Origin: Raineyaceae bacterium
GTDB lineage: Bacteria; Bacteroidota; Bacteroidia; Cytophagales; Thermonemataceae
DNA: 28,937 nt
Direction: 5' to 3'
Assembly (NCBI GenBank): GCA_043771315.1
Contig: JAYVHJ010000474.1
Coordinates: forward strand, 1-28,937
Position numbers and translations under genes: made by a program. Of the stretch, positions 937 to 24,245 are shown one piece after another (the first letter of the stretch is position 1; each line of letters starts with the position of its first letter). The notes under the pieces were generated by a model that had not been told where the DNA came from, ran no database searches, and saw only the letters and a program-made list of their open reading frames with translations.

Positions 937-2594
937 AATAATTTGTTTGCTTCTGATTTTTTAAGTGCCTCAATTGTGTAAAGATTAAGTTTTTGCAAAA
1001 TTTGTATCAATTCCTCACGTACTCCAACCGCCAAATAATCCTCTTTTTCAGCTACCAAAGGCTTATTTTCAGGTTTCATTTGTGGAAAAAATAACACTTC
1101 TTGAATAGAATTTTGGTTAGTCATTATCATAGTCAGGCGGTCAATACCAATGCCAATACCAGCTGTAGGAGGCATTCCGTATTCCAAAGCACGCAAAAAA
1201 TCCTCGTCCATTGCCATTGCTTCTTCATCTCCACGTGCTGCTAAACTTAGTTGCTCCTCAAAACGCTCACGTTGGTCTATTGGGTCGTTTAGCTCTGAAT
1301 AAGCGTTACAAATTTCTTTTCCATTACAAATTCCTTCAAAACGCTCCACTAAGCCCTCTTTTGAACGGTGTTTTTTGGTAAGTGGCGACATCTCAACAGG
1401 ATAATCAGTAATAAAAGTAGGTTGAATGAGCAAATGTTCTACTTTTTCACCAAAAATCTCATCAATAAGTTTAGCTTTTCCCATTGTTTCATCTGTACTA
1501 ATATGCATAGATTCAGCGGTTTGACGCATCTCTTGTTCATTCATATTAGAAATATCAACGCCTGTATATTCTTTGATAGCTTCAAACATTGTAAAGCGTT
1601 TCCAAGGGCGTTGAAAGTCAATAATATTCTCTCCAACCTGTACTTTTGTTGTTCCGTGCAACGTAATAGCAATTTTTTCAATAACTTCTTCAGTCATTTC
1701 CATCATCCAATTATAATCTTTGTAGGCAACATAAAGCTCCACTTGCGTAAATTCAGGGTTATGAAAACGGCTCATTCCTTCATTTCTAAAATCTTTTGCA
1801 AACTCAAAAACACCATCATAACCGCCTACAATCAATCTTTTTAGGTATAATTCATTGGCAATACGCAAATACAAAGGCATATCAAGCGTGTTGTGGTGCG
1901 TTTTGAATGGGCGTGCAGTTGCGCCACCGTGAATGGGTTGCAAAATTGGTGTTTCAACCTCCAAATAGCCTTTATCACCTAAAAAATGACGTATCACATT
2001 GACAAGTTTGGCACGTTTAATAAAAACCTCTCTTACGTGAGGATTTACAATCATATCTACATAACGCTGTCTATAACGCTGTTCTGGGTCTGTGAAGGCA
2101 TCATACGTTTTTTTATTTCCAGCTTCATCAGTTACTTCACGCACAATAGGAAGTGGGTGAAGTGCTTTGGAAAGTAAAGTAAAATTTGTAACGTGAATAG
2201 AAATTTCACCTACTTGTGTAGTGAAAACGTAGCCTTTGAGTCCGACAATATCTCCAATATCTAGCAGTTTTTTGAAAACGGTATTATAGTTGGTTTTATC
2301 TTCTGTAGGACATATTTCGTCACGGTTTACGTAGATTTGTATGCGCCCAGTTGCATCTTGAATTTCTGCAAACGAGGCACTTCCCATAATACGAAAACTC
2401 ATCAAACGCCCTGCAATAGAGATGTTTTTGTAGTTTTCCTTGCTTTGAGGGTTATTTTCTTGATAATTTTTTAGAATGTCATCAGCAGTTGCGTTTACTT
2501 CAAATCCATCTGCTGGATAGGGATTTATGCCCATTTTGATAAGTTCTGCACGTTTTTGACGGCGCATTACCTCTTGTTCGCTAAGTATTTGCAT
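849..2594 (-). CDS. lysS: Lysine--tRNA ligase (class II LysRS) with a Bacteroidetes-type C-terminal extension
   Basis: 581-aa ORF. OB-fold anticodon-binding N-domain, then class II motifs (FRNEG, ...[11 protein letters not shown]...) and a ~70-aa C-terminal extension. Its start overlaps the rimM stop by 1 nt. Confidence 0.95.
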
Positions 2595-3157
2595 TATTTT
2601 ATTTTTTTAGTATTTTTAGGTTCTTCTTCCAAATACACTTCTAAAAGTCCGTCTGGGAGATTTACGTTCATTTGTTTTTTTTCTCTATCAATGCTCAAAA
2701 TAGTTTCATTATTGATAGGAATAAGCACTTCTTTTTCTCTATAATCCATTGCAATCAGTTCACTATGTTGCATAGAATAAATAGTTTTAATAGTACCGAG
2801 TTCTCCTTTATTGACATCAATTACTTGAAAATCAGTAACTTCGTGGTAATAAAAATCTGTACCTTCTAGTTTTGGAAGTGCGGCAAGTGGTAGATACAAA
2901 GTTGCTTTTCCAAGTGTTTGCGCTTGTTCTATGGTATCAATTCCTTTGAGTTTGATAAGAGCTGTTTTTGGCTTATTGGGAAGAATACGGACACTTTCCA
3001 CCTCAAAGCTAACTAATTGTTTTTTTATATCTACAAAAACAGTTGTCATATCTTCATAATCTTCCAAATAATCTACATCTAAATATGCAGAAAATTCACC
3101 ATACAAGGCGTGTGTACGTAAAATATAGCCTAATTCGTAGCAGTCGTTGGCAGTCAT
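2594..3157 (-). CDS. rimM: Ribosome maturation factor RimM (RimM N-domain plus PRC barrel)
   Basis: 187 aa. Alignable to E. coli RimM: [16 protein letters not shown] vs IIKLKGVDDRDAANAL; GTDFYYHEV vs EGDYYWKDL; C-terminal PRC-barrel segment also matches. Confidence 0.8.
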
Positions 3158-3158
3158 T

Positions 3159-3200
3159 TGAGTTGTGAGTTATAAGTTATGAGTTATAAATTGTGAGAGA
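3159..3200. repeat. Heptanucleotide tandem repeat array (GAGTTRT/AAGTTAT x6), complement-type of the AATTCAC family
   Basis: GAGTTGT GAGTTAT AAGTTAT GAGTTAT AAATTGT GAGAGAG with strict 7-nt periodicity. It abuts the rimM start codon. Confidence 0.7.
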
Positions 3201-3231
3201 GATAAAATTTGTTTAGCCAAATAATTTAATT

Positions 3232-3279
3232 AAAAAAACCTGCAAAACTATCCTAAAGAGTGTTTTGCAGGTTTTTTAG
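3232..3279. terminator. Strong bidirectional hairpin between rpsP and rimM (terminator/attenuator candidate)
   Basis: A7-CCTGCAAAAC-13 nt loop-GTTTTGCAGG-T6. Perfect 10-bp stem with an A-tract upstream and a T-tract downstream. Confidence 0.5.
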
Positions 3280-3325
3280 AAAATAATATGTTAGCTGTTA
3301 TAATTGGTTGTTGTTTATTGTATTT

Positions 3326-3374
3326 AATTCACAATTCACAATTCACAATTAAAAATTCACAATTAAAAATTATT
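3326..3374. repeat. Heptanucleotide tandem repeat array (AATTCAC)n, 7 units
   Basis: AATTCAC AATTCAC AATTCAC AATTAAA AATTCAC AATTAAA AATTATT. It overlaps the rpsP stop codon. Confidence 0.75.
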
Positions 3375-3912
3375 CTTCTGTTTTTGTAACTTCTTCTGTT
3401 GCAGGTGCATCAGCAATTACTTCTGCCACAGGCTCTGCAACTGGCTCAACGACAGGGGCATTTTTCTTAGCAATAGCAGCGGCACGGTCAGTAGATTTCT
3501 TAGTTTCTGCATCAAGACGAGCTTTAGCATCTTTTACTTTATTATCAGCCAAAGTATCTATTTTTCCAGAGATTTTAGCTTCTTTATTTTGTTTCCAAGC
3601 AGCAAATTTAGCATCAGCAACTTCTTGCGTGATAGCTCCTTTTCCTACACCAATTTGAAGATGTTTTCTGATAAGTACACCTCTATATGAAAGCATTGCT
3701 TTTACTGTGTCAGTAGGTTGTGCACCTTTCATTACCCAGCTAAACGCTTTTTCTTCATCAATATTGATGCTTGCAGGGTTGGTGTTTGGGTTGTAAGTGC
3801 CTATTTTCTCTATGAACCTACCATCACGTGGAGAGCGAGAGTCTGCAATGATAACATCATACATTGCTAATTTTTTACGTCCACGACGTGCTAATCTGAT
3901 TTTTACGGGCAT
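3370..3912 (-). CDS. rpsP: 30S ribosomal protein S16 with an Ala/Glu/Val-rich C-terminal extension
   Basis: N-terminus MPVKIRLARRGRKKLAMYDVIIADSRSPRDGRFIEKIGTYNP is canonical bS16. A ~90-aa low-complexity tail (VVEPVAEPVAEV) is typical of Bacteroidetes. Confidence 0.9.
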   Translation of the reverse strand: MPVKIRLARRGRKKLAMYDVIIADSRSPRDGRFIEKIGTYNPNTNPASINIDEEKAFSWVMKGAQPTDTVKAMLSYRGVLIRKHLQIGVGKGAITQEVADAKFAAWKQNKEAKISGKIDTLADNKVKDAKARLDAETKKSTDRAAAIAKKNAPVVEPVAEPVAEVIADAPATEEVTKTEE

Positions 3913-4130: not shown

Positions 4131-4196
4131 TATATAGAAAATACATTGTTTGACGAAGTGCGTTGTGGGTGTCGCTAACGCTAAAACAACCAACAA
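4131..4196. repeat. Left inverted repeat (~65 bp) bounding a 2.2-kb three-gene cassette
   Basis: 4131-4196 is ~90% identical to the reverse complement of 6267-6332. The shared core is GTGCGTTGTGGGTGTCGCTAAYGCTAAAACA. Confidence 0.65.
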
Positions 4197-4220
4197 TGGC
4201 AGAAATTAAAACCATAGAAT

Positions 4221-4835
4221 ATGAAAAAATTAAAAGTTACAATTGATTGGCTTAATTGGTTTCACAAAGAAGCTATTGAAGTGATTACTACAATAGATAA
4301 TAAAGAATTATTCAGCAAGTCGCTAGAAGGTGAAGTATCTGGTAATCATTTGAGTTATAATACGGTTTTTAAATTGGTAGATTCTTTTCTAAGTGCTTTT
4401 GACTTCCTAATCATTGATTACATTAGACTTATCTGGTGTGAAAAACTTAAAAATGATAATTTACAACTCTCTAATAGGGGTGATACCTTTGAAGATTGGA
4501 AAGAAAGTGTGTTGAAAGGAAATTACGAATTTGAAAATTCATTTGGTGGAGATTATGAAGATCCAACAAATATTTATTACAATTACTTATTAGATGCAGA
4601 AGGCAAAGATATGAGTCTTTATAAATACAATCAAACAGATGGAACTCTAATATTTCTTTGGTACAATCCTAAAACTGATACAACAATGTATAGCATAGAC
4701 ATAGAGCTTAGAAAAGCTTTGTTTTCTATTGATAAATACTTTGATGTTCATTTACCTGATGATTTTATAGAACATAATAAAATAATGCTAGCACAAGCAG
4801 AAGATAAAATAATGAGTATGTTTAAAACAATCTAA
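4221..4835 (+). CDS. Hypothetical cytoplasmic protein (204 aa), no family recognised
   Basis: Clean ATG ORF with no signal peptide. It is the first gene inside the inverted-repeat-bounded segment. Confidence 0.5.
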   Translation: MKKLKVTIDWLNWFHKEAIEVITTIDNKELFSKSLEGEVSGNHLSYNTVFKLVDSFLSAFDFLIIDYIRLIWCEKLKNDNLQLSNRGDTFEDWKESVLKGNYEFENSFGGDYEDPTNIYYNYLLDAEGKDMSLYKYNQTDGTLIFLWYNPKTDTTMYSIDIELRKALFSIDKYFDVHLPDDFIEHNKIMLAQAEDKIMSMFKTI

Positions 4836-5050
4836 CTATATATGCGACTTTGTTGGTATGCTTTTTCCTCTGTTGTCGTCTGTTTTAGCATAACGTACAC
4901 CAACAACGGCAGAAACCTTGAAAATCTGTGATATATATAATTTACTTTTAGAATTATGTAACATTTTTCTAGAATTATGTAACACCCTATTGTGGAATTT
5001 GTTGCAATTTTGCATTGTGGAAATACTTTCACAATCTAAAATCTATCATA

Positions 5051-5839
5051 ATGAACATAAAAAATCTACTACTAATAATTTTTGCAACTGCTTCTATTAT
5101 TTTTTCAGGCTGTAAAAAAGACAATAATGCAGTAACGCCTGTAGTACCACCCACAAATGTAATAATCACTCAAACAGTAGTACAACCTGCAATAAACCTA
5201 CGAACTGCAGGTAATTTTGTGGTTTTGGCTGGTTCGCTAATATCAAATATTCCTGCCTCTGCAATCACAGGAAATATTGGGTTAAGCCCGTCAGCGGGTA
5301 GTATGATTACAGGATTTGGAGGCACTGAAATAACTGGAACAGTTTATACAGTAGATGCGACTGGTCCTGCGGGTTCTGTACCTGATGCAGTAGGGCTTAC
5401 TGCTGCAAAAGGTGATTTAACAACAGCCTACAACGAAGCTGCAGGTCGTACTTCAACTGACATTGTACTTCTTGCAGGAAACATTGGGGGACTTACACTC
5501 AGTCCTGGACTTTACAAATCATCAGGATCACTTGAAATTTCTTCTGGAGACCTTACATTTGATGCAAAAGGAAATGCAAATGCAACTTTTATCATTCAAA
5601 TTGCATCTTCTTTGAATACTACTTCAGGTCGTAAAATCTTTTTAGCTGGTGGGGCATTGGCATCAAATATCTTTTGGCAAGTAGGAACTTCTGCTACGCT
5701 TGGAACTACCTCTGTTTTCAAAGGTAACATAATGGCTGACCAATCAATTTCAGTAAATACGGGTGCAGCAGTTGAAGGGCGTTTGCTTGCACGTATTGCA
5801 GCGGTTACTTTAAGTAGTAATACAGTTGTCAGACCATAA
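5051..5839 (+). CDS. DUF3494 / ice-binding-like family lipoprotein
   Basis: Lipoprotein signal MNIKNLLLIIFATASIIFSG|C. The mature part matches the DUF3494 beta-helix family: TAGNFVVLAGS...ITGNIGLSPS..., GLTLSPGLYKSSGSLEISSGDLTFDAKGNANATFIIQI, IFWQVGTSATLGTTSVFKGNIMADQSISVNTGAAVEGRLLAR. The ORF track starts at 5015; the ATG at 5051 is preferred. Confidence 0.7.
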   Translation: MNIKNLLLIIFATASIIFSGCKKDNNAVTPVVPPTNVIITQTVVQPAINLRTAGNFVVLAGSLISNIPASAITGNIGLSPSAGSMITGFGGTEITGTVYTVDATGPAGSVPDAVGLTAAKGDLTTAYNEAAGRTSTDIVLLAGNIGGLTLSPGLYKSSGSLEISSGDLTFDAKGNANATFIIQIASSLNTTSGRKIFLAGGALASNIFWQVGTSATLGTTSVFKGNIMADQSISVNTGAAVEGRLLARIAAVTLSSNTVVRP

Positions 5840-5862
5840 TTGTACAATTATTTTATGAGATA

Positions 5863-5900
5863 AAAGAGGGTGTCCAAAAAGGATACCCTCTTTTGGTGTT
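5863..5900 (+). terminator. Intrinsic terminator after the DUF3494 gene
   Basis: AAAGAGGGTGTCC-AAAAA-GGATACCCTCTTT hairpin followed by TTTTGGTGTTTT. Confidence 0.5.
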
Positions 5901-5943
5901 TTAGCATAGCAATAAATCAATACACAAATGGTGGGAAAAATGA

Positions 5944-6240
5944 CTACAGGATATCTACAACCCTTCCGTACGCAATTTCAGATGGGAAAACCCCCAAACT
6001 AAATTCTGCACCTTGTTTGATTTTATTCTGCAAAAAATCACGTTCAAGCAATTTAATTCCTATCCTACATATTTTCCCAATTTCAATGTATTCGTCTTGA
6101 ATTTGAATTTCTGAAAATGTAGAATGTTCTGAGTCAATTAGCCAGAAAGATGTTCTGATTGGATTAGTTATAGGAAAGTTAAAGTTCTCTTTTGCTAATT
6201 CAAAAAATATAATATCAACTATCAAAAATAGCTCTTTCAT
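5944..6240 (-). CDS. Hypothetical protein (98 aa)
   Basis: ORF inside the inverted-repeat-bounded segment. No recognisable domain. Confidence 0.35.
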   Translation of the reverse strand: MKELFLIVDIIFFELAKENFNFPITNPIRTSFWLIDSEHSTFSEIQIQDEYIEIGKICRIGIKLLERDFLQNKIKQGAEFSLGVFPSEIAYGRVVDIL

Positions 6241-6266
6241 TCTGATTATTTTTTTACAAATCTAAA

Positions 6267-6332
6267 GGTTGGTGTTTTAGCATTAGCGACACCCACAACG
6301 CACTACATCAAACAATGTATAATTTCTAATTC
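6267..6332. repeat. Right inverted repeat (~65 bp) bounding the cassette; overlaps the ABC transporter stop codon
   Basis: Reverse complement of 4131-4196 with 5-6 mismatches and 1 indel. Confidence 0.65.
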
Positions 6333-8361: not shown

Positions 8362-9291
8362 TTATTCTACAATTATTTGGTGTCCTTCTGTAAGGTTTCC
8401 TTCACTAATTTGCACCAGATATAAACCTGCTTTTAGCGTTTTGAGTGGAATAACAAACTCTTTGGCTTTGTTTGTTTGCGCTGACAATACCAATGCACCA
8501 AAACTATTATAAATATTTACCTCACTAAACGTAATACCTTCTTTGGAATCAATCATTGATTTTATTTGTGGAGGCAATATGGGACATTCAACTGTGGTAG
8601 TTTTTTCTGAAACACCTATTTTTATTTGCTCTGAAGCAGGATTTGGCGAGATATTATACAGTTTTGACGAATTGCTACAAAGACTAGGCAGATTTGTAGG
8701 GTCACTAGGATTATTATAAGAATTATTTAGGGTTATAGGTGCTATAAAATCAGGGTGAGCATACTTCACTAATCCACTTGTATAGATTTGATTGGCTATA
8801 TCAAAAAGTCGTGAGATTTGATTAACTTTAAGTATATAGGTATCATATTGGAGCGTTCTTGCTAGTATCACTTCTCCGCTAAACATTTGAAGTACGCTAG
8901 AAATTGCTACATTAGGTTGCAATTCCAAAATAATTTCGTTGATAGGATACCAAGGCAGGTTTCCTAATTTATAAGCGAAACAAACAAATTCTGCATCAGT
9001 AGTTAAACTCCCTTGCAAATTTTGCAAAAAAACAGCAGCATTCTGATTTATATTACTGATAATAAGCATTTTGTTTCCAAAATTTTGTAAGCAACTAATT
9101 TGTAGGGAATTAGAAATATTAGTGATTGTCTGTTGGGTTGATTGCAGGGTATTCTCATCATACAATCTTACTACAATTTGAGTTTCATCTAAAGATAGCT
9201 CTAATTGTCTACCGCCAGAATAATAATAGGTTTGCGCTTGCACAGACATTGAAACAAGCAAAATAAACAATACAAGTAGTGATTTTTTCAT
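8362..9291 (-). CDS. Secreted protein with signal peptide and C-terminal T9SS sorting domain (Por secretion CTD)
   Basis: N-terminus MKKSLLVLFILLVSMSVQA. C-terminal ~80 aa has the type-A CTD signature SPNPASEQIKI...VNIYNSFGALV...LKAGLYLVQI. The middle region ends in VKYAHPDFIAP, reminiscent of a subtilase-propeptide/inhibitor-like fold (weak). Confidence 0.75.
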   Translation of the reverse strand: MKKSLLVLFILLVSMSVQAQTYYYSGGRQLELSLDETQIVVRLYDENTLQSTQQTITNISNSLQISCLQNFGNKMLIISNINQNAAVFLQNLQGSLTTDAEFVCFAYKLGNLPWYPINEIILELQPNVAISSVLQMFSGEVILARTLQYDTYILKVNQISRLFDIANQIYTSGLVKYAHPDFIAPITLNNSYNNPSDPTNLPSLCSNSSKLYNISPNPASEQIKIGVSEKTTTVECPILPPQIKSMIDSKEGITFSEVNIYNSFGALVLSAQTNKAKEFVIPLKTLKAGLYLVQISEGNLTEGHQIIVE

Positions 9292-11344: not shown

Positions 11345-11540
11345 TTCTTGTCTGAACTCAATATACATCATTCCAAGAGGGTAAAATCTTTTGGAATGAT
11401 TGCGTTTTTAAGATAGTAAGTATTTGATTATCATTTTTTTAATTAAATATTTTGTCAAATAAGTAGGTTTTAGTAATTAGTTGATGTTTTGATAGTATTA
11501 AAAATGATATGTAAAACCTTACTATTAACGTTTTGTATTC

Positions 11541-11568
11541 ATTCACAATTCACAATTCACAATTCACA
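11541..11568. repeat. (ATTCACA)4 heptanucleotide tandem repeat 36 nt upstream of the RNase E/G start codon
   Basis: ATTCACA ATTCACA ATTCACA ATTCACA ATTACCT. Confidence 0.75.
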
Positions 11569-11603
11569 ATTACCTACATACAATCAACTAAAAAAATACG
11601 AAC

Positions 11604-13203: not shown

Positions 13204-13241
13204 AAAAGTGTTATTCTGATTATCAGAATAGCACTTTTTTT
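13204..13241. repeat. 38-bp palindromic terminator-like element, copy 1 (A4-GTGTTATTCTGAT-TATCAGAATAGCAC-T7)
   Basis: Nearly identical (1 mismatch) to 15570-15608. Perfect 13-bp stem with an A-tract upstream and a T-tract downstream, so a bidirectional terminator. Confidence 0.65.
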
Positions 13242-15557: not shown

Positions 15558-15569
15558 ATTTCCATAATA

Positions 15570-15608
15570 AAAAAGTGTTATTCTGATTATCAGAATAACA
15601 CTTTTTTT
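15570..15608. repeat. 38-bp palindromic terminator-like element, copy 2 (shared terminator of the convergent CCO and hutG genes)
   Basis: AAAAAGTGTTATTCTGATTATCAGAATAACACTTTTTTT. Confidence 0.65.
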
Positions 15609-16635: not shown

Positions 16636-16640
16636 TTTTT

Positions 16641-16668
16641 AATTGTGAATTGTAAATTGTGAATGAAT
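16641..16668. repeat. Heptanucleotide repeat (AATTGTG, the reverse complement of CACAATT) x4, immediately 5' of the hutG start on the coding strand
   Basis: AATTGTG AATTGTA AATTGTG AATGAAT. Confidence 0.7.
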
Positions 16669-16684
16669 ACAGTTTTAGCATATT

Positions 16685-17500: not shown

Positions 17501-17560
17501 TGTTTTTTAATTATGAATTTTTAATTATAAACTAAATATAAAGTATCCTTAATCAAAATT

Positions 17561-18373: not shown

Positions 18374-18560
18374 TTTTTTGTATTTTTGTGTTTTGATACT
18401 GAAAAATAGTTGTAACTTAAATATAAAAGGTTGTTAATCAACCAATTATATAAATACTATTCGTAATTATTTTTAAACGTAACAAAAAAAACATCAAAAA
18501 AAAAGAAAAAAGTGAATTTTGATAAATTAGATTGTTGTAATTATTACTACGCTGTATTTA

Positions 18561-18595
18561 ATTCACAATTCACAATTTACAATTCACAATTATTA
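18561..18595. repeat. (AATTCAC)n heptanucleotide repeat, 5 units, ending 10 nt before the rsfS start codon
   Basis: AATTCAC AATTCAC AATTTAC AATTCAC AATTATT. Confidence 0.75.
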
Positions 18596-18605
18596 ATAAA
18601 GTCAA

Positions 18606-19503: not shown

Positions 19504-19514
19504 ATATAAAATAG

Positions 19515-19544
19515 TGGTGAGTTGTAAGTTATGAATTGTGAGTT
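19515..19544. repeat. Heptanucleotide repeat (GTGAGTT/GTAAGTT) x4
   Basis: GTGAGTT GTAAGTT ATGAATT GTGAGTT. Same family as 3159-3200. Confidence 0.6.
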
Positions 19545-19754
19545 AATACAAAATACTGATAATCAATTTATTATGACCTTCCACATAAAAACATAAAAAT
19601 CAAGTAAAAGAAGTAATACCTCTGCAATTGCATCTGCAAGCGCACGTGTATTGCTTCTTTTTTGTGTGTTCATTTTGTTTAAGAGTTACAAAAAATACTA
19701 AAAAACATTGTTTGTATTTTCACAAACAACTATTATACAAATACTCCAAAATCT

Positions 19755-20984: not shown

Positions 20985-21584
20985 CTAGGCAACAGCTAAA
21001 GTACTTTCAAAACAGATATTATATTTTTCTGCTTGTTTGCGTAGGTTGATAAGTGCGTAACGCATACGTCCAAGTGCCGTATTTATGCTTACGTTGGTAG
21101 CTTGTGCTATTTCTTGAAAACTCATATCAGAGTAATGACGCATAATAAGTACTTCTTTTTGTTTTTTTGGTAGTTCTTCTACCAACTGACGCACTTTTTC
21201 ATTTATTTCGTTGCGTATTTGTGTATCTTCAAAAGATTCTTGTATTTGGTGCATACCATTTGAAAACTCATTTTGAGTGTCAAGTTCTGTAGTTGGATAG
21301 CGTTTGTTTTTTCTGAAGTAATCAATAGCAATATTATGTCCAATGCGAGTAATCCAAGAAGAAAACTTGCCTTCATCATTATATTTGCCTTGTTTGATAG
21401 TGCGTACTGCTTTAATAAAAGTTTCTTGCAATAAATCCTGTGCCACATCTTTATCCTTGACAATCAAGTAGATGGTATTTTGTACTTTCATTTGGTAGCG
21501 TTTAAACAATTTTTCAAAAGCTTGTTCGTTTCCATTTGCATAAAGTGCTACAAGTACGCTGTCGCTGATTATTGGATTTTTCAT
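20985..21584 (-). CDS. RNA polymerase sigma-70 factor, ECF subfamily
   Basis: Region 2 (LLQETFIKAV...FSSWITRIGHNIAIDYFRK) and region 4 (EVLIMRHYSDMSFQEIAQATNVSINTALGRMRYAL). The ORF extends to an upstream ATG at 21659. The start at 21584 (MKNPIISDSVLVALYANG...) fits the ECF N-terminal consensus better. No anti-sigma gene is adjacent. Confidence 0.75.
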   Translation of the reverse strand: MKNPIISDSVLVALYANGNEQAFEKLFKRYQMKVQNTIYLIVKDKDVAQDLLQETFIKAVRTIKQGKYNDEGKFSSWITRIGHNIAIDYFRKNKRYPTTELDTQNEFSNGMHQIQESFEDTQIRNEINEKVRQLVEELPKKQKEVLIMRHYSDMSFQEIAQATNVSINTALGRMRYALINLRKQAEKYNICFESTLAVA

Positions 21585-21817
21585 AATGATAGGGTTGTTG
21601 GATAATTGGGTGATTTTATTAGCTGTTGCTTTAAACACTTCTTTTGTGTCGTATGCCAATCTTTATTACAAAACCGTTCCAAAAATTAAAATAAGTCCAA
21701 AAAAATCATTAAAAACCCACAATACTTCATTTAGAATACAAAAAAGCACTTTTTTTATTTTAGAAAATTTCTTTAAAGAAATTTTCTAATGCTTTATTGC
21801 CAAAATACTGTACGTAA

Positions 21818-24190: not shown

Positions 24191-24245
24191 TTTACATTCG
24201 TACTTCGTACTTCTCACTTCGTACCTCTTCCTACACTTCTTCTGC
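24191..24245. repeat. Tandem heptamer repeat (TCGTACT/TCTCACT), reverse-complement type of the 24095 array; overlaps the MVP stop codon
   Basis: ACATTCG TACTTCG TACTTCT CACTTCG TACCTCT TCCTACA CTTC. Confidence 0.6.

Follow-up and report, generated by a model that had tools for sequence, protein, structure and literature searches.

The stretch of DNA analysed here, hereafter the window, comprises 28,937 nucleotides of a Raineyaceae bacterium (contig JAYVHJ010000474.1, assembly GCA_043771315.1) and contains, at 5051-5839, a gene for a lipoprotein of the DUF3494 family of ice-binding proteins (IBP). The gene is preceded by two identical 15-nt sequences and a promoter-like module, is followed by an intrinsic terminator, and is set apart from two further open reading frames (ORF204 and ORF98) by related imperfect palindromes of about 40 nt (Table 1). 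The rest of the window consists of housekeeping genes (aspS, rimM, rpsP, an ATP-binding cassette (ABC) transporter, HU, RNase G, cmk and others), and the relatives of its ribosomal protein S16 (rpsP) point to Cytophagales-like Bacteroidota. Neither a tRNA that might serve as an integration site nor, at Rfam gathering scores, a known RNA family was found in the window; between 4000 and 6400 no RNA family was obtained even at E ≤ 1.

The exact window protein is also found on ENA contig BUSI22-1_SAMN19433714 scaffold_4505, and a sibling contig with a 97% identical ABC transporter belongs to sample SAMN19433757, which is an epilithic biofilm from a glacier-fed stream of the Caucasus at 4.7 °C (Busi et al. 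2022, supplement). The sample prefix shared with this sibling suggests that the host of the window also lives in glacier-fed-stream biofilm. Loci and contigs used for comparison carry L numbers, L001 being the longer source contig of the window.

Table 1. Coordinates of the features in and around the IBP unit
Feature	Position	Strand	Basis
Repeat A and flank (core 4157-4200), inverted duplicate of the last ~12 nt of the ABC gene, palindrome and GGCAGAAA	4091-4205	-	inverted repeat; L136 and L138 match 4135-4210
ORF204, rare conserved hypothetical	4221-4835	+	no Pfam or PADLOC hit
Repeat B, left end of IBP unit, ending ...ACACCAACAACGGCAGAAA	4869-4909	+	repeat comparison
Putative relic of final codons and stop (..LENL*) of AraC-type regulator gene	4916-4931	+	alignment, HTH_18 matches
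Degenerate third 21-nt-phased unit (GATATATATAAT...)	4932-4948	+	alignment; within 21-nt insertion relative to L005, L006, L016
Two exact 15-mers, TGTAAC half-site pair, candidate AraC-type activator site	4949-4984	+	sequence, module profile
CAATTTTG, aligned to the CAnCTTTG box of the module	5005-5012	+	module alignment
Palindrome TGTGGAAATACTTTCACA, window form of the consensus TGTGAAAATTnATTCACA	5016-5033	+	pairing across aligned loci
IBP coding sequence (ATG at 5051, stop at 5839), 262-aa DUF3494 / IBP-1-fold lipoprotein precursor	5051-5839	+	PF11999, 6EIO match, AlphaFold2, Foldseek
Signal peptide and lipobox (IFSG/C), Cys21 codon 5111-5113	5051-5113	+	sequence, 38 homologues, model confidence
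Intrinsic terminator, 15-bp stem and T run	5861-5895	+	DNA fold z -3.65; kept in L002 (both copies) and L003
Repeat C, right end of IBP unit	5885-5925	+	repeat comparison, copy alignments
ORF98, putative gene	5944-6240	-	no family hit (Pfam, PADLOC)
Repeat D, palindrome after ABC-transporter stop	6262-6304	+	same element in L136, L138

The ice-binding-type lipoprotein

The protein encoded at this locus belongs to the DUF3494 family over essentially its full length, as a first-pass annotation of the sequence had stated. The Pfam profile PF11999 (Ice_binding/DUF3494) matches with an E-value of 1.3e-63 and 214.9 bits (gathering cut-off 28.7), and its alignment spans residues 58-259 and profile positions 1-207 of 208. 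A sequence search of the PDB matched 25 solved DUF3494 ice-binding proteins, the best of them being EfcIBP (6EIO; E 2e-61; 228 aligned residues, of which 55.7% are identical), a protein of the bacteria that live in consortium with the Antarctic ciliate Euplotes focardii. The AlphaFold2 model, built from an alignment of 38 homologous sequences, has a predicted local distance difference test score (pLDDT) of 88.5 and a predicted template-modelling (TM) score of 0.83, and is formed by a single long helix (113-132) and about 20 short strands. Both this model and its Foldseek comparison describe a right-handed triangular beta-solenoid with one long alpha-helix alongside. All 31 Foldseek matches in the PDB at E ≤ 0.001 are characterised ice-binding proteins, subsequent matches being noise; TM scores relative to the target are 0.90 for EfcIBP, 0.95 for FfIBP (4NU2) and 0.89 for ColAFP (3WP9), with root mean square deviations of 1.4-1.8 Å (1.7 Å for EfcIBP).

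EfcIBP has the same single-domain size as the window protein and is reported to carry T-x-T and T-x-D repeats (PMC7277481). At the eight aligned motif positions the window protein reads SNI, TGN, TLS, TFD, SLN, NTT, TTS and SVN, the first residue being T, S or N in all eight and the third T, S, D or N in seven. Several T-x-T/D positions are therefore S-x-N/S here, so that the small polar residues are kept in character, not in identity. A second difference is an insertion of about 11 residues, at about residues 103-114 (ATGPAGSVPDAVGL), relative to EfcIBP, which has been described as having no capping head (PMC7783341). This insertion aligns gap-free to the capping-head segment of FfIBP, a protein from the same phylum (Flavobacterium frigoris, Bacteroidota). 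FfIBP and ColAFP, from Colwellia, have the IBP-1 fold in common with the window protein, but their identity to it is only 42-45%, and the window cap lacks the Cys pair that is present in FfIBP, as implied by the C107S mutant entry 7EHK.

The lipobox that had been noticed on first inspection is borne out by the homologues. Lipoprotein signals were recognised by a basic n-region, a hydrophobic h-region and a [LVI/F][AST][GAS]C box with its Cys within the first ~35 residues. The N-terminus, MNIKNLLLIIFATASIIFSG followed by C21KKD, reads accordingly as basic K4, hydrophobic L6-F18 and the lipobox F-S-G-C21. C21 and K23 are each present in at least 90% of the 38 homologues, in which the consensus GCKKD is nearly invariant. 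The model has pLDDT below 50 for residues 13-30, which, together with the Pro/Thr-rich composition of residues 22-46, fits a flexible tether. The crystallised chain of EfcIBP starts with KKEKND..., aligned to the KKDNN that follows Cys21 in the window protein, so that the native EfcIBP precursor probably has the same lipobox. For Flavobacterium, earlier work (PMC13413566) has discussed the occurrence of such lipoprotein signals on antifreeze-like beta-solenoid proteins induced by cold. The window encodes a genuine lipid-anchored DUF3494 protein of the ice-binding type, which belongs to an already known kind.

Homologues of at least 70% identity occur in metagenome-assembled genomes (MAGs) of Bacteroidota, Ignavibacteria, Fibrobacteria, Marinimicrobia and Balneolales. 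This taxonomic breadth supports the horizontal mobility of the family that the first-pass annotation had assumed. Cold sites are frequent among the sources of homologues. Among plasmids only distant actinobacterial copies (at most 45% identity) were found, and no phage match was obtained. The same annotation regarded the segment as compositionally distinct, a sign of foreign origin that did not hold: the IBP gene has a GC content of 0.398 (rpsP, 0.396) and a third-position GC of 0.186, against 0.257 ± 0.046 in the other genes of the window, and its GC excess is confined to codon position 2 (0.517), owing to a protein rich in Ala, Gly, Thr and Ser. Foreign composition is ruled out on these grounds. 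Elsewhere in the window, a low-GC block at 26935-28841 (0.23-0.29), with an HNH endonuclease gene (27740-28465) and two ORFs without family match, appears more deviant in composition than the IBP gene.

The promoter module and its candidate regulator

Two 15-bp direct repeats upstream of the gene had been placed at 4942-4956 and 4966-4980 and proposed as a regulator binding site. Two exact copies of TAGAATTATGTAACA do exist, although 4-7 nt away from those positions: they lie at 4949-4963 and 4970-4984, with a spacing of 21 bp and between 67 and 102 nt ahead of the start codon. Of 300 sequences simulated from a Markov model of the window, 11 contained an exact 15-mer direct repeat within 100 nt, and Tandem Repeats Finder, run on the window, did not call the 21-nt repeat. 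The repeat is kept in the related contigs L002 and L003. A search of 80 genome loci for the exact 15-mer and the junction-repeat motifs described below found them nowhere outside L001, L002 and L003, with the exception of a 10-nt loop pattern that gave three isolated matches (L025, L055, L069). The TGTAAC core of the 15-mer is widespread as part of a larger module. In the window, TATGTAAC occurs at 4956 and 4977, the second about 21 nt before a -7-type box, which makes two like-oriented half-sites about two helical turns apart beside the -35 region. The window, L003 and the first of the two copies in L002 (L002a) carry a 21-nt insertion relative to L005, L006 and L016, resulting in three 21-nt-phased units; the exact 15-mers are the second and third of these, and the first is decayed (ATATATAAT).

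For the comparison of upstream regions, homologues of at least 57% identity were taken from 80 genomes. A shared architecture is found in 22 aligned loci, formed by a (T)ATGTAAC half-site, a second half-site TGTGTAACAC about 21 nt further on, a CAnCTTTG box after ~22 nt more, and, 17-40 nt ahead of the start codon, a palindrome TGTGAAAATTnATTCACA. The CAnCTTTG box is similar to the -7 promoter element of Bacteroidota, TAnnTTTG; the rpsP promoter in the window reads TACCTTTG. Searched with an nhmmer profile of this module, 892 kb of IBP loci yielded 113 hits (E ≤ 0.01), every one of them in the sense of the gene, and neither 288 kb of unrelated contigs nor three sibling contigs without an IBP gene yielded any. 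The module precedes 69 of the 162 assessable DUF3494 ORFs, in 42 loci from Bacteroidia orders and Balneolales, and is absent from the Ignavibacteria, Fibrobacteria and Chitinophagaceae loci examined. When the window, L002 and L003 were excluded from the profile, it still recovered 4951-5033 (E 8.8e-10) as the sole significant hit of the window, besides a weak register-shifted match to the same site (4924-4963, E 0.019).

Pairing within the module palindrome is retained in 89.9% of cells, compared with 26-55% in slid controls. A role as RNA hairpin is not borne out, since covariation is slight and, in the inner five pairs of 113 sites, G-U combinations (13) are not in excess over A-C combinations (10); the palindrome may be either an operator or a 5'-end stem-loop. 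Its right arm (ATTCACAAT) resembles one unit of the heptamer AATTCAC / AACTCAC, which forms tandem arrays (3-5 units, with TGTATTTA as a frequent start) in many intergenic regions of the window, at 3161-3206, 3305-3380, 11533-11580, 16636-16671, 17504-17535, 18553-18600, 19510-19546 and 26800-26838. Most of these arrays precede a start codon by a few nt and run in the orientation of the gene (RNase G, rsfS, arginase, rimM). Siblings L132-L134 and L003 have retained the arrays, which may act as a leader element in an organism that lacks Shine-Dalgarno sites.

A family of AraC-type (HTH_18) regulators of ~190 aa is associated with the module. Of 86 loci, 16 encode it, and all but one of these carry the module (15 of 16; Fisher p 1.4e-4); the module also precedes the regulator gene itself. 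In L004, L016, L024, L055 and L066 the HTH_18 genes end directly before the half-sites; of these, L024 is from the cultured Wenyingzhuangia gilva. The window retains CCTTGAAAATCTGTGA, colinear with the last codons of the regulator gene in L006, and 4913-4961 is 84% identical over 49 nt to L006 5885-5933. AraC/XylS activators use direct-repeat half-sites about 21 bp apart that overlap the -35 region beside a weak core promoter, as AraC does at I1-I2. The spacing and like orientation of the half-sites, their position just upstream of the core promoter and the adjacent HTH_18 gene in many loci all agree with this scheme. The candidate regulator differs from AraC/XylS proteins in being short, with an uncharacterised N-terminal domain (MVSxRCK...), and the site is putative, deduced from genomic association. 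With its TGTAAC core serving as half-site of a module linked to AraC-type genes, the 15-mer is plausibly a regulator site, as was first suggested.

About 37 module hits stand before genes other than DUF3494, among them genes for CsbD, Dps/ferritin-like proteins, YceI, PRC-barrel proteins, DUF326, FMN reductase, DUF5670, cupins, receiver/Hpt proteins and the AraC-type regulator. In L012, L019, L007, L011, L081 and other IBP loci up to nine module copies are found per 12-kb locus, each before a different gene (IBP paralogues, CsbD, Dps, YceI, cupin, PRC-barrel, DUF326, DUF5670, receiver/Hpt); such loci look like a stress island with a single promoter type. Within the library of literature that was searched, no paper connected DUF3494 to AraC or CsbD.

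Junction repeats and surrounding genes

The ~40-nt repeat (consensus TTGTTGGGTGTTTTAGCATnAGCnACACCAACAAC) is present in four copies, A to D (nhmmer E 1e-6 to 2e-10), which separate ORF204, the IBP gene and ORF98; the segment had been described as repeat-bounded, and this stands in part: the four repeats together bound three ORFs. The remaining ~26 kb of the window contain no further copy, nor do L132-L135 and L137, and in the ~100 kb available of this lineage the copies occur only at the IBP and ABC junctions. A metagenome scan for ATACATTGTTTGAYGWAGT, one arm of the repeat, gave 49 loci, all of them chance matches without extended similarity.

The positions at which related sequences part company fall within these repeats. 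The IBP unit (about 4913-5908) is kept at 91-95% nucleotide identity in three contexts and occurs once in L003 and as a tandem pair in L002. L003 is in the same MAG as L133 and L138, which places the unit elsewhere in that genome. The window, L002a and L003 diverge at about 5902-5908 (TTTTAGCATA), inside repeat C, while the second copy in L002 (L002b), which carries a single 15-mer, is alike until 5928. In L136 and L138, whose ABC transporter is 97% identical, the element stands directly after the ABC stop codon, in L136 as a perfect palindrome with an 11-bp stem, and homology with the window ends in the distal arm of repeat D (6268-6272). Repeat A with its flank contains a 48-nt inverted repeat, 94% complementary to 6273-6320. 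On this comparison of sequences, the repeats behave as recombination breakpoints and are similar in form to repetitive extragenic palindromic (REP) elements. As in REP elements and the mosaics formed by them (BIMEs), they are imperfect palindromes of ~40 nt that follow a stop codon in the window, in L136 and in L138, form inverted pairs in some cases and coincide with rearrangement breakpoints. They differ from REP/BIME in their low copy number in the available DNA, and no REP-associated (RAYT) transposase was seen.

Three siblings share aspS-rimM-rpsP with the window at 87-93% nucleotide identity, and their homology stops at about 4029. On the 3' side of the ABC gene four siblings differ: the window has the IBP segment, L136 an enoyl-CoA hydratase gene, L137 a 287-aa gene and an AAA ATPase, and L138 GAPDH. 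In L136 (8954-8986) the 3' palindrome of the ABC gene abuts the enoyl-CoA hydratase gene, whereas in the window the two are 15.6 kb apart (6268 and 21907), a displacement that implies an inversion, or a rearrangement on a larger scale, of which one end lies in repeat D. An empty-site comparison gave no sibling in which rpsP adjoins the ABC gene, and with different neighbours in every sibling the size of an insertion is not definable.

The region upstream of rpsP (window ~4029) is a variable spot among these close relatives. L132 has there, at 1570-3689, an AAA_15/AAA_21 ATPase and a 224-aa gene, and L133 and L134 a different gene of no known family that ends ...DAIYWERI; a RloB fragment lies beside the IBP copy in L002 (3185-3466), and both the ATPase and the RloB genes look defence-like. 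A second variable site is found at 8362-9291 (-), where a 309-aa protein with a type IX secretion system (T9SS) tail is encoded; this gene is absent at that place in L136, and L137 has at its position a 777-aa S8 peptidase with a T9SS tail. A set of 1.84 billion proteins contains 14 representatives of ORF204, whose full-length relatives are 37-49% identical to it; the family is real but rare.

Other features of the window stand apart from the IBP segment. A 37-nt hairpin (AAAAGTGTTATTCTGATTATCAGAATAGCACTTTTTT, 95% identical) occurs at 13204-13240 and 15569-15605, on both sides of an RPE65-like carotenoid oxygenase gene, and also in L136. Near the 5' end of aspS, 297-420 and 819-943 form a duplication ~522 nt apart (93% identical over 96-124 nt), with further copies upstream in the longer source contig (L001 4363-5893). 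At 24231-26720 (-) an 829-aa protein with MVP_shoulder (E 3e-27) and Vault_3 matches is a bacterial homologue of the eukaryotic major vault protein.

Interpretation and significance

Taking these observations together, we think it quite probable that the locus carries a lipid-anchored ice-binding protein in a self-contained, activator-dependent unit located between palindromes that act as recombination breakpoints. The protein would be exported and anchored at Cys21, with a Pro/Thr-rich tether of ~25 residues holding the beta-solenoid (~47-262) outside the cell, where one or more flat solenoid faces might adsorb to ice and provide recrystallisation inhibition or ice shaping near the envelope. 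Its gene would be a transcription unit of its own, about 4913-5908, ended by its own intrinsic terminator. The promoter would need an activator on the two TGTAAC half-sites, followed by the -7-type box and by the palindrome at the start of the transcript (about 5016-5020). The most likely activator is the ~190-aa AraC-type regulator, whose gene adjoins the IBP gene elsewhere and would have left its last ~16 nt here. In this lineage the ~40-nt palindromes on both sides would serve as recombination breakpoints, which would explain the differing chromosomal sites of the IBP unit among siblings.

Several observations weigh against this explanation. The score of the protein for the NCBIfam equivalog NF045625 (IBP_CFB) is 193.8 bits, under the curated cut-off of 400, which places it outside that subfamily of equivalogs. 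Settings that are not obviously icy, such as wastewater, groundwater and an anoxic spring, are also among the sources of homologues with at least 70% identity. Surface lipoproteins of Bacteroidota have an acidic export signal right after the +1 Cys, with motifs of the K-(D/E)2 type; the CKKDNN of the window protein, with one acidic residue, is a weak match to it, and many homologues read CKKDE or CKKEED. The module is common to general-stress genes, so that its role may exceed ice binding, and no AraC-type regulator gene is present in the 28.9-kb window. As for mobility, no integrase or any other recombinase is encoded among the proteins of the window, and the folding of the repeats does not surpass that of shuffled DNA (z -0.5 to -0.7).

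Part of this evidence would suit a protein that has the DUF3494 fold without binding ice, that is, a surface beta-helix for adhesion, substrate binding or protection of the envelope under stress. The family includes putative substrate-binding proteins from non-icy settings (PMC12337378), and the sources of close homologues, the sub-threshold equivalog score and the company of CsbD, Dps, YceI, PRC-barrel and DUF326 genes under the same promoter module all go in that direction. We consider it improbable, nevertheless, given the 56% identity and TM of 0.90 to a protein of measured ice activity (a thermal hysteresis of 0.53 °C at 50 µM is cited for EfcIBP in PMC10992025), the characterised ice-binding proteins that make up the whole set of best structural matches, the polar ladder kept in character and a host from a glacier-fed stream. 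The first-pass annotation spoke of cassette cargo, and the segment 4141-6320 could be taken for an integron-like array of the CALIN kind (a cluster of attC sites lacking an integrase), with the repeats as attC and the IBP gene as a promoterless cassette. It shares with integron cassettes three ORFs set apart by related imperfect palindromes, identity between copies of the unit that ends within the repeat, as at a crossover point, and a neighbouring unit that differs in L002. An attC site, 5'-RYYYAAC...GTTRRRY-3', is 57-141 nt long, and its bottom strand folds stably. In the present repeat, 5'-GTTG...CAAC-3', the outermost triplets are GTT and AAC, opposite to the polarity of attC, and its ~40 nt fall short of the length of known attC sites; moreover, repeat A is inverted and ORF98 lies on the opposite strand, a conserved promoter module and a terminator belong to the IBP gene itself, and the palindrome is the element found after the ABC-transporter stop in siblings. 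Polarity, length, folding energy, the lack of an integrase in the window and the gene's own promoter rule out the attC reading, and an array of this kind is in our opinion extremely unlikely; what stands of the cassette is a self-contained unit between palindromes that mark breakpoints.

The regulatory part of our explanation has its own competitors. The TGTAAC elements might be the -35 and -10 boxes of a promoter for an extracytoplasmic function (ECF) sigma factor, with the CCTTTG box and the palindrome in a long 5' leader. TGTAAC resembles ECF -35 boxes such as that of B. subtilis SigX, about 16 nt separate the two cores, the associated genes resemble a general stress regulon that is sigma-controlled in other phyla, and an ECF sigma gene lies in the window (20985-21659). 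This possibility is made less likely by the fact that both elements have the same sequence: identical elements from a 21-nt duplication fit one DNA-binding domain used twice, not two sigma regions. The CAnCTTTG box, at a fixed distance and matching the housekeeping -7 element at rpsP, together with the significant linkage of the AraC-type gene to the module, leads us to give the ECF promoter little credit. It could also be argued that the 15-mer repeat is a recent 21-nt tandem duplication without function of its own, since it is an insertion relative to L005, L006 and L016, is seen only in the window, L002a and L003, and is reduced to a single copy in L002b. What is duplicated, however, is the most conserved element of the module across phyla, the copies hold the 21-bp phase, and the last of them keeps its distance from the -7 box; with the original first half-site degraded, the duplicate may have taken its place. 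A functionless duplication seems to us a rather unlikely account.

Beyond the single locus, we put forward, as a tentative proposal that may well turn out otherwise, that TGTAAC-N16-TGTAAC, a -7 box and the palindrome GTGAAAATTnATTCAC form a previously undescribed module through which a small AraC-type regulator co-controls DUF3494 genes and stress-like genes (CsbD, Dps, YceI, PRC-barrel, DUF326, cupin, DUF5670) in Bacteroidia and Balneolales, and that in the present lineage the IBP unit bearing this module moves from one REP-like palindrome to another.

The lipid-anchored DUF3494 proteins gain with this one a further member from a cold freshwater biofilm, which combines an EfcIBP-like body with an FfIBP-like cap loop and is for this reason a reasonable candidate for work on ice-recrystallisation inhibition. 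The junction palindromes suggest that the unit is reshuffled between very close relatives without an integron or transposon. In our opinion, the regulatory module is the more novel and more useful lead, as it offers a testable handle on the timing of ice-binding protein deployment and suggests that ice binding forms part of a wider response to stress. If the proposed co-control is true, a regulatory logic of bacterial ice-binding proteins would be described for the first time, and with it a candidate general stress regulon of Bacteroidota.

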